Assembly (NCBI GenBank): GCA_052034235.1
Contig: JBPOIT010000002.1
Span: 69,939 to 133,938, forward strand
Length of the DNA: 64,000 bases
From: Candidatus Levyibacteriota bacterium
Lineage (GTDB): Bacteria; Patescibacteriota; Microgenomatia; Levybacterales; UBA12049
Direction of reading: 5' to 3'
The notes below the pieces were generated by a model. That model was not told the origin of the DNA, did not search any database, and was given only the letters and a program-made list of their open reading frames with translations. This document shows positions 44,815 through 45,932 of the stretch, piece after piece. Position numbers and translations under genes: made by a program. The stretch's first letter is position 1, and every line of letters starts with the position of its first letter.

Positions 44815-45067
44815 AACTAACTTCGTTGCCTTAGAAATAACGTGTTTTAGAAAATCCAACTATATGCTGGAATAGCTCAGTATCTGACAGTACCTGAAAA
44901 GGTAAAAATCTGATCAGTGGAGCCAATCAGCAGGGAAGATCCCGATTTAATCGGGAAACCCTCAGAGACTACATGTTGGAGTCCAGCTAGGCTGGGCAAG
45001 ATATAGTCCGACCTTTATGGCGACATAAAGAATTATAGATTACAAGGATCTATAGATTAACATATTG
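44815..45067 (+). other. Putative ORF-less group I intron/intervening sequence in 23S domain IV, near the E. coli 1931 site
   Basis: 23S collinearity breaks after ...GTAACTATAACTGTTCTATGGT(U) and resumes at (G)AGCGAAGTTCCTTGTCGGG; about 253 nt with no rRNA homology; 5' flank ends in U and the insert ends in G, as for group I introns. The exact boundaries are uncertain. Confidence 0.5.
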
Positions 45068-45614
45068 AGCGAAGTTCCTTGTCGGGTAAGTTCCGACCCG
45101 CACGAAAGGTAGAACGACCAAGTAACTGTCTTAATCCTTTACCCGGCGAAATTGAGATGGCTGTGAAGACGCGGCCTAGGTATACATGGACAAAAAGACC
45201 CCGGGAGCTTTACTGTAGCTTGGCATTTGCAAGCTTATTTCAATTATTTAGAATAGGAGGGAGATTCGTCATCAGTGAAATACCTCTTTTTGGAATGAGT
45301 GAGCATAACTTGGACCCGCTTAAAAATACGGGCCAGGGACAGTGTCTGGTGGGCAGTTTTACTGGGGAGGTAGGCTCCTACAACGCAACGGAGCCGCGCA
45401 ATGGTTGGCTAACTCCGGATGGAAATCGGAGTGATAGTGTAAATGCACAAGCCAGCTTGACTGCGAGACCTACAAGTCGAGCAGGTACGAAAGTAGGCGT
45501 TAGTGATCCTGTGATGGATAGTGGTATCCACACAGCTTAACGGATAAAAGCTACCCCGGGGATAACAGGCTGATCGCATCCAAGCGTCCATAGCGACGAT
45601 GCGGTTTGGCACCT

Positions 45615-45932
45615 TAACTACAACATTGGGGCGCCTTAGAGAGTAATCTCTAAAGTCTGGTTATCAACAAACATGCAGATAGAGAATGCATAAAGATAAT
45701 AAAAATACTAGTTCAAATCGGTGAACACCAATAGTGCGAACAGCTGTTGGTCAATACCGAGATTCGACTTTATGTCGGATTGTATCGACTGATTCCTGAT
45801 TATCAAATTAGGATGAGATAGAAACTCTGTTTGGTTAAACAAACAAATTTATAGTTTTTATCATACGACTAGCTCCTCTACAATGATGAAGAGGATGAAG
45901 GTATAGTCAGCGCACATAGTAATATGTGATTG
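45615..45932 (+). other. Putative ORF-less group I intron/intervening sequence in the 23S peptidyl-transferase region, near the E. coli 2500 site
   Basis: TTTGGCACCT | 318 nt | CGATGTCGGCTCATCACATCC. The flanks rejoin to the universal GGCACCUCGAUGUCGGCUC sequence; the insert starts after U and ends in G. Confidence 0.6.

Follow-up and report, generated by a model that had tools for sequence, protein, structure and literature searches.

The 23S rRNA gene and its two insertions

The 23S ribosomal RNA (rRNA) gene found on contig JBPOIT010000002.1 of an uncultured Candidatus Levyibacteriota bacterium is interrupted by two insertions that are very probably group I introns devoid of open reading frames (ORFs). 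The DNA analysed, called here the window, is a 64-kb stretch of this contig, and positions are those of the window. The 23S gene occupies 42820..46335 on the plus strand (3516 nt; Rfam RF02541, 2219 bits over the full model 1-2925), which is also the strand of all intron features described below. It was aligned with MAFFT to the 2904-nt rrlH gene of E. coli K-12 (Ec), used as numbering reference, with U1939, C1962, A2451, C2498 and A2503 checked as anchors. The alignment has two large insertions only, one after Ec1931 and one after Ec2500. Intron 1 (L1931; 44815..45067, 253 nt) follows U1931 in domain IV, between helices 69 and 71 (H69 and H71). Intron 2 (L2500; 45615..45932, 318 nt) follows U2500 in the central loop of domain V, at the peptidyl-transferase centre. 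The three exons (42820..44814, 45068..45614 and 45933..46335) total 2945 nt.

Exon 1 ends in ...CUAUGGU and intron 1 in ...AUAUUG, the corresponding ends of exon 2 and intron 2 being ...GGCACCU and ...GAUUG. A U precedes each insert and a G is its last base. Shifting the junction of either insert gives no equally good match to the universal exon sequence. The predicted ligated junctions join 44814 to 45068 (...CUGUUCUAUGGU to AGCGAAGUUCC...) and 45614 to 45933 (...GGUUUGGCACCU to CGAUGUCGGCUC...). On the minus strand of the inserts lie their longest ORFs, of 40 amino acids in intron 1 and 44 in intron 2, and neither insert holds an endonuclease gene. The LAGLIDADG or other endonuclease ORF carried by mobile introns is absent from both introns, and no such domain, which could act in trans, is found among the ten flanking ORFs scanned. 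An initial annotation of the window had given the two inserts the same boundaries and lengths, which are exact to the base in the alignment to the intron-less E. coli gene, and had correctly read the preceding U, the terminal G and the lack of a homing endonuclease.

The same annotation had guessed that the host belongs to the Candidate Phyla Radiation (CPR), in agreement with the relatives of its TrxB protein and of its 23S gene. The trxB gene, 0.5 kb upstream of the 23S gene, has its best relatives in Candidatus Levyibacteriota genomes (up to 78% identity), and the 23S exons are ~80-90% identical to those of genomes from the same group. Levyibacteriota is a member of the Microgenomates group of the Patescibacteria/CPR. 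These relatives identify the host as a Levybacteria-like member of the CPR.

The exon sequence that precedes intron 1, TGTTCTATGGT, has U1921, U1924 and U1928, all in the last 11 nt of exon 1, where E. coli has other bases. The initial annotation had noticed the three differences, which are real, and had considered them odd, a view that does not hold when relatives are compared. The stem of H69 is kept by compensatory A1909-U1921 and A1906-U1924 pairs, and the 14-nt sequence TGTTCTATGGT, together with G1938, recurs in the string AACUGUUCUAUGGU-AGCGAAG of ~40 related 23S genes, most of them lacking the L1931 intron. The possibility that TGTTCTATGGT is an intron-linked change was rejected because it is also present in intron-less relatives. 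By this comparison TGTTCTATGGT is a signature of the lineage and has no relation to the intron.

Structure of intron 1

The general group I intron model of Rfam, RF00028, matches intron 1 with 60.2 bits at 44805..45030 over the full model (1-253), which passes the gathering score of 50, and the homologue of intron 1 in the related locus L012 with 66.4 bits. P1 (44808..44834) is built from the exon sequence CUAUGGU and the intron sequence AAC (44808..44817) paired with the guide GUUGCCUUAG (44825..44834). In the cmscan alignment and in the sequence, the U·G wobble of the 5' splice site joins U1931 (44814) to G44828, a pair that is invariant across the L1931 homologues. The P10 guide CUUCGUU (44821..44827) could form 7 bp with the start of exon 2, AGCGAAG (45068..45074); in this pairing, as read from the sequence, it would adjoin the P1 guide on its 5' side. 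The omega-G is G45067.

The remainder of the fold is composed of P3 (44855..44860 with 44975..44980), P4 (44865..44870 with 44927..44932), P5/P5a/P5b with a GAAA loop (44875..44923), P6/P6a (44933..44961), J6/7 plus the P7 5' strand UCAGAGACUACA (44962..44973), P8 (44983..44995), the P7 3' strand AAGAUAUAGUCC (44998..45009) and P9 with a GCGA loop (45013..45030). P9.1 (45034..45054) and the intron tail ...AACAUAUUG lie outside the Rfam model. The guanosine-binding pair of P7 is formed by the G of GACU and the C of AGUC and is invariant across homologues.

The fold was evaluated on the window sequence and nine same-site homologues from Levyibacteriota, Gottesmanbacteria and metagenome contigs. 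For both introns, hand-drawn structures were counted on MAFFT alignments in which P6 and P7.2a are imperfectly aligned and probably under-scored. In the ten L1931 sequences, 96.7% of the cells are paired, compared to 35-43% when the 3' partners are slid, and 37 of the 70 pairs are compensatory, with changes on both sides. Pair counts over this set also support the P5/P5a/P5b domain with its GAAA loop and A-rich bulge. When intron 1 is folded alone by minimum free energy (MFE), most of its helices appear (z = -4.0). Judged against the published description, intron 1 may resemble the IC1-type L1931 introns in its complex P5 and its P7, the strands of which are Tetrahymena-like.

Structure of intron 2

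Homologues of intron 2 were searched in a metagenome collection with a pattern composed of the exon end GTTTGGCACCT, a spacer of 8-25 nt and GGGGYGCC, which matched at least 120 contigs. Among the matches listed there are 69 complete inserts that end at CGATGTCGG, mostly 300-350 nt long, and many inserts that are 67-74% identical to intron 2 over its full length. The window sequence and 53 distinct same-site homologues from these listed matches were aligned with MAFFT, yielding the 54-sequence set used below.

The long P1 (45608..45635) pairs the exon sequence GGCACCU and the intron sequence UAA (45608..45617) with the guide UUGGGGCGCC (45626..45635), and the U·G wobble at its 5' splice site joins U2500 (45614) to G45629. 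The P10 guide ACAUUG (45623..45628) has 6 bp with CGAUGU of exon 3 (45933..45938), and the motif ACAU[U/C]G directly 5' of the guide is conserved in the L2500 family. P1 is followed by P2 with a GUAA loop (45637..45652) and by a branched P2.1/P2.1a (45660..45700). P3 (45708..45713 with 45867..45872) pairs CUAGUU with GACUAG and covaries as CUAGC with GCUAG, and P4 (45718..45723 with 45755..45760) pairs UCGGUG with UACCGA, invariant in the family. P5 (45727..45751) and P6 (45762..45780) precede the P7 5' strand CGACU (45786..45790), whose partner lies in the invariant sequence GAAGGUAUAGUCAG (45897..45910). Two further hairpins, P7.1 (45794..45813) and P7.2/P7.2a (45817..45862), stand between the P7 5' strand and the P3 3' strand; all eight pairs of P7.1 and nine of the ten pairs of P7.2 are compensatory. 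P8 (45874..45895), P9 with a GUAA loop (45913..45928) and the omega-G (45932) complete the intron. In the family, GNRA loops close P2 and P9 and the terminal G is found in nearly all sequences. The guanosine-binding pair of P7, again the G of GACU with the C of AGUC, is invariant across homologues.

In the 54 sequences, 85.9% of the cells are paired against 38-46% when the partners are slid, and in 70 of the 93 pairs both partners change in a compensatory way. Covariation scores 0.368, compared to 0.06-0.11 for controls, and none of 500 shuffles reaches any of the observed measures. MFE folding of intron 2 finds P2, P2.1, P4, P5, P6, P7.1, P7.2, P8 and P9 (z = -4.5), and unguided RNAalifold on the L2500 alignment recovers P1, P2, P4, P5, P6, P7.2, P8 and P9. 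The inner four pairs of P7 are invariant or nearly so in both intron sets and are supported by conservation, not by covariation.

RNAalifold also proposed two pairings that were rejected in favour of P7 and P3, which agree with the topology of group I introns and with the counted pairs. In the first, the 5' strand of P7 was joined to the 3' exon; in the second, part of the P3 3' strand was joined to bases immediately upstream of the P7 3' strand.

Pairings P7.1 and P7.2 between P7 and the 3' strand of P3 are reported to define subgroup IA in the classification of Michel and Westhof from 1990. By this one criterion, the P7.1/P7.2 architecture of intron 2 is typical of subgroup IA.

One member of the L2500 set, L140:5816-6186 (minus strand), has the exon end GGTTTGGCACCT twice, before the insert and at its apparent end. 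Either its intron boundaries are wrong or the contig is rearranged; it was kept in the alignment, where it slightly lowers the pair counts.

Group I assignment, predicted splicing and alternative explanations

The assignment of the two inserts builds on their observed insertion sites, folds, covariation, splice-site features and presence or absence among relatives. Both have a P3-P9 core with the P3/P7 pseudoknot, the U·G pair at the 5' splice site, the P10 pairing, the omega-G and the G-C pair in P7, and covariation backs every helix that varies in either intron. It is thus very likely that they are ORF-less group I introns in the 23S gene of a Levybacteria-like CPR bacterium. The initial annotation had proposed such introns, a proposal now supported by covarying folds in both cases, by the Rfam match of intron 1 and by the 54-sequence set of intron 2. 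The search with RF00028 that it proposed as a check recognises intron 1, while intron 2 scores below the cut-off.

Excision of both introns with ligation of the exons is inferred from the intron anatomy, from the selection implied by the compensatory changes and from the statement that insertions in CPR rRNA genes are removed from the transcripts (PMC11270868). In the precursor rRNA each intron would fold into the group I core P3-P9 with its P3/P7 pseudoknot. The internal guide and the end of the upstream exon would form P1, with U1931 or U2500 as the U of its U·G wobble. The 5' splice site would then be attacked by an exogenous guanosine held by the G-C pair of P7, after which the terminal G of the intron would take over the pocket and P10 would align the downstream exon. 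Attack by the freed 3'-OH of the exon would join the exons into a continuous 23S rRNA of 2945 nt. With both introns removed, H69 and H71 would again be joined by their single-stranded linker, and domain V would regain its central loop (...GGCACCU-CGAUGUCGG...), which holds C2498, A2503 and U2506 of the peptidyl-transferase centre. GNRA loops are conserved at L5b and L9 of intron 1 and at L2 and L9 of intron 2; loops of this type in these positions usually make tertiary contacts.

Several observations weigh against two splicing-competent group I introns. In P1 of intron 1 the exon base U1928 (44811) faces U44831 of the guide in a U·U mismatch. The guide CCUUAG, found in the window and in seven of the nine short L1931 homologues, is a perfect match to the universal CUAAGG and not to the U1928 of the host; a second lineage of L1931 introns (L046:19075-19366 and L047:17801-18097) has the guide CCAUAG, which pairs with U1928. 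Three of the ten L1931 homologues (L017:19482-19745, L023:19198-19459 and L135:4113-4382) have an omega-A in place of the G, implying that not every member of the family need be competent for splicing. The omega-G is kept in the other seven and P7 is unchanged in the omega-A copies, which may undergo unusual splicing or none. The L1931 intron of Simkania is unspliced according to the title of Everett et al. 1999, as cited in PMC11270868. Intron 2 matches RF00028 with 29.5 bits (E 2.7e-5; 45605..45929, full model 1-253), below the gathering score of 50, and the L2500 homologue of L012 is likewise not reported at this threshold. The low score of intron 2 is accounted for by the lack of positions for P7.1/P7.2 or P2.1 in RF00028; the shortfall is a limit of the general Rfam model and not a failed structural criterion. 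Finally, the conservation of P1 in the L2500 set is not independent evidence because the search pattern fixed the exon and the guide; the pattern also imposed, in part, the invariance of the U·G pair in the L2500 homologues.

Some of these points could mean that one or both inserts escape splicing and persist in mature 23S rRNA, as former introns turned into tolerated expansion segments. The Simkania precedent, the U·U mismatch and the omega-A of relatives whose P7 is nevertheless invariant would all be compatible with retention, but the window copies have their catalytic core, guide, P10 guide and omega-G intact, and the compensatory changes that keep the helices argue for selection on the ribozyme fold. 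Moreover, 318 nt between U2500 and C2501, in the peptidyl-transferase loop, are hard to reconcile with function, and the reported removal of CPR rRNA insertions from transcripts points the same way. Retention is thus quite unlikely. A related proposal is that the L1931 intron of the window is not excised and remains part of the mature rRNA, at the interface of the subunits, as the one of Simkania reportedly does; if true, the mismatch and the omega-A relatives would mark CPR L1931 introns that drift towards a tolerated insertion. Its milder version states that the L2500 inserts are a compact ORF-less family with P7.1/P7.2, abundant in metagenomes, systematically overlooked at the Rfam gathering score and meriting a model of its own. 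Taken jointly, the two versions are unlikely.

The inserts could also be intervening sequences (IVSs) cut by RNase III without religation, leading to a fragmented 23S rRNA. Bacterial 23S genes commonly contain IVSs, which in CPR are present at other sites (PMC11270868), and the metagenomic L2500 insert of L162 carries a 23S_rRNA_IVP gene. However, the known sites are helix tips, 23IS2 and 23IS4 (PMC11270868), and not 1931 or 2500, the ends of the inserts do not pair with each other, and both inserts have a full covarying group I fold instead of a simple long hairpin, which makes IVSs very unlikely. An origin of the inserts in assembly or binning, with 23S fragments chimeric with foreign intron sequence, might be suspected since metagenome assembly often goes wrong at rRNA operons and since many contigs of the host organism break within the 23S gene. 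Against it, a second assembly made independently from a different sample, L001 (ENA ERZ22157947), spans the locus with both inserts and is identical at 4100 of 4101 nt, the single mismatch being at window position 43359, which excludes an artefact of the present assembly; both sites are also occupied by homologous introns in further Levyibacteriota genomes and in numerous metagenome contigs. An artefact is extremely unlikely. The reading of both inserts as group I introns is the one retained below.

Distribution in relatives, gain and loss

Introns of related loci were mapped by MAFFT in L012, L013 and L047, and by exon regular expressions in L017, L018, L023 and L046, whose loci end within the 23S gene. 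L012 has introns at 1917, 1931 and 2500, the first of which (18505-19217, 713 nt) codes for a LAGLIDADG-type ORF of 176 amino acids. L013 has the L1917 intron only (17258-17975), and L047 carries one at 17087-17796. The L1917 introns of relatives are ~710 nt long, are inserted 14 nt upstream of the L1931 site and are absent from the window. In one Gottesmanbacteria genome, introns occupy positions 1917, 1931 and about 2604. In the closest 23S relatives among the matches listed (L141, L176 and L133; 92-94% exon identity) the L2500 intron is present and position 1931 is uninterrupted.

Long L2500 introns of 600-900 nt from metagenomes have LAGLIDADG_2 ORFs of ~195-210 amino acids in L113, L128, L158 and L205, truncated endonuclease ORFs in L166 and L179, one of them internally deleted, and the 23S_rRNA_IVP ORF in L162. 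The invariant motif of the P7 3' strand is found in the longer L2500 introns too. The coexistence of intact, decayed and absent endonuclease ORFs at L2500 is the pattern expected from invasion by homing followed by loss of the gene. Identity of the L2500 introns to that of the window rises with identity of the flanking exons (Spearman 0.59, p 1.4e-5, n=46 contigs), a measure blurred by other introns present in the flanks. This correlation fits a mainly vertical descent of the L2500 introns. Reconstructed from these comparisons, the most likely history is that both introns of the window descend from mobile introns that carried an endonuclease gene, have lost this gene and are now mostly inherited vertically.

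Relation to known introns

Insertions in CPR rRNA genes were reportedly first noted by Brown et al. in 2015.

The survey of Tsurumaki et al. 2024 (J Bacteriol; PMC11270868) reports 968 insertions in 348 CPR 23S genes; Rfam classes 45% of the insertions as group I introns, of which 222 are ORF-less. Its hot spots 23IS6-8 correspond to positions 1917, 1931 and 1952, further group I sites lie between 1952 and 2593, round the peptidyl-transferase centre, and ORF-less and endonuclease-bearing introns are described at one and the same site. Host clade, gene and kind of element all match the window introns, although this pair is not named in the survey, which gives the positions of 23IS9-11 in figures only. 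The survey classed introns by Rfam only, whereas here the L2500 fold was worked out and is supported by covariation. The kind of element is already catalogued in CPR and the window adds two new members.

The L1931 introns of Thermotoga, Simkania and thermophilic Synechococcus are IC1-like and are inserted after U1931, like intron 1 (PMC1995217). They are 654-700 nt long and all code for a single-motif LAGLIDADG protein, in contrast to intron 1 with its 253 nt and no ORF. Compared by description, they lack P2, while intron 1 has a short P2-like hairpin (PMC1995217). The chloroplast rrl gene of Floydiella terrestris has introns at 1931 and 2500, as the window does, which are small (406 and 381 bp) and presumably ORF-less (PMC2997540). 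They are organellar and both classed as IB, while intron 2 has the IA-associated P7.1/P7.2; the likeness is one of site and size. The phage introns T4 td and Twort orf142-I2, of subgroup IA2, have two hairpins between the P7 5' strand and the P3 3' strand, like intron 2. In the Twort structure, as summarised in PMC1995217, P7.1/P7.2 wrap the guanosine pocket. These phage introns interrupt other host genes and their likeness to intron 2 is architectural only. The Coxiella burnetii 23S introns, Cbu.L1917 and Cbu.L1951, differ in site from those of the window, and one of them has an endonuclease gene (720 nt; Table 1 of PMC1995217), lacking in the window introns. A Coxiella rRNA intron without the canonical omega-G is nevertheless self-splicing, according to a title cited in PMC11270868, and on this basis is a precedent for the omega-A of L017, L023 and L135.

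Introns in bacterial rRNA genes are rare outside CPR, which makes them a useful marker of this radiation and of its way of making ribosomes. The present case contributes exact insertion sites, full secondary structures, guide sequences and the 54-member L2500 alignment. Surveys at the curated threshold of RF00028 would label the L2500 inserts "uncharacterised" and mis-measure the 23S genes. The general picture of group I introns and of CPR is not changed by the finding.

Genomic context and other features of the window

The 23S gene is preceded by a tRNA-Ala(UGC) gene (42568..42641, plus strand) and followed by the 5S rRNA gene (46419..46529, plus strand; RF00001, 69.5 bits). Rfam finds neither a 16S rRNA gene nor a tRNA-Ile(GAU) gene in the whole 64-kb window, and the rRNA operon (42500..46600) is thus split. 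The 23S gene begins ~0.5 kb past trxB in the window and ~5-6 kb past trxB in related genomes.

Apart from the introns, the 23S gene has deletions relative to E. coli of 18 nt (Ec1711-1728) and 27 nt (Ec2132-2158), and small insertions of 8-27 nt each after Ec164, 274, 1503 and 1585. These minor differences are ordinary variation in helix length, possibly caused by the reduction of rRNA in CPR.

Elsewhere in the window, ARAGORN identified a tRNA-Ile(UAU) gene at 6584..6657 (plus strand), which scores 72.4 bits with the Rfam tRNA model. This tRNA is rare in bacteria, where AUA is normally read by a lysidine-modified CAU tRNA. There are two tRNA-Met(CAU) genes, at 12118..12187 (minus strand) and at 12253..12327 (plus strand). 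An AdoCbl-II (cobalamin) riboswitch aptamer is found at 219..271 (plus strand; 39.9 bits compared to a threshold of 36.5), upstream of the ORFs that begin at 739. Two adjacent very large ORFs of 1349 and 1091 amino acids occupy 53663..60989 on the plus strand. Neither has a match in NCBIfam; the 1349-amino acid ORF features a carboxyl-terminal AAA_5 (dynein/MoxR-like) ATPase domain and the 1091-amino acid ORF a transglutaminase core.

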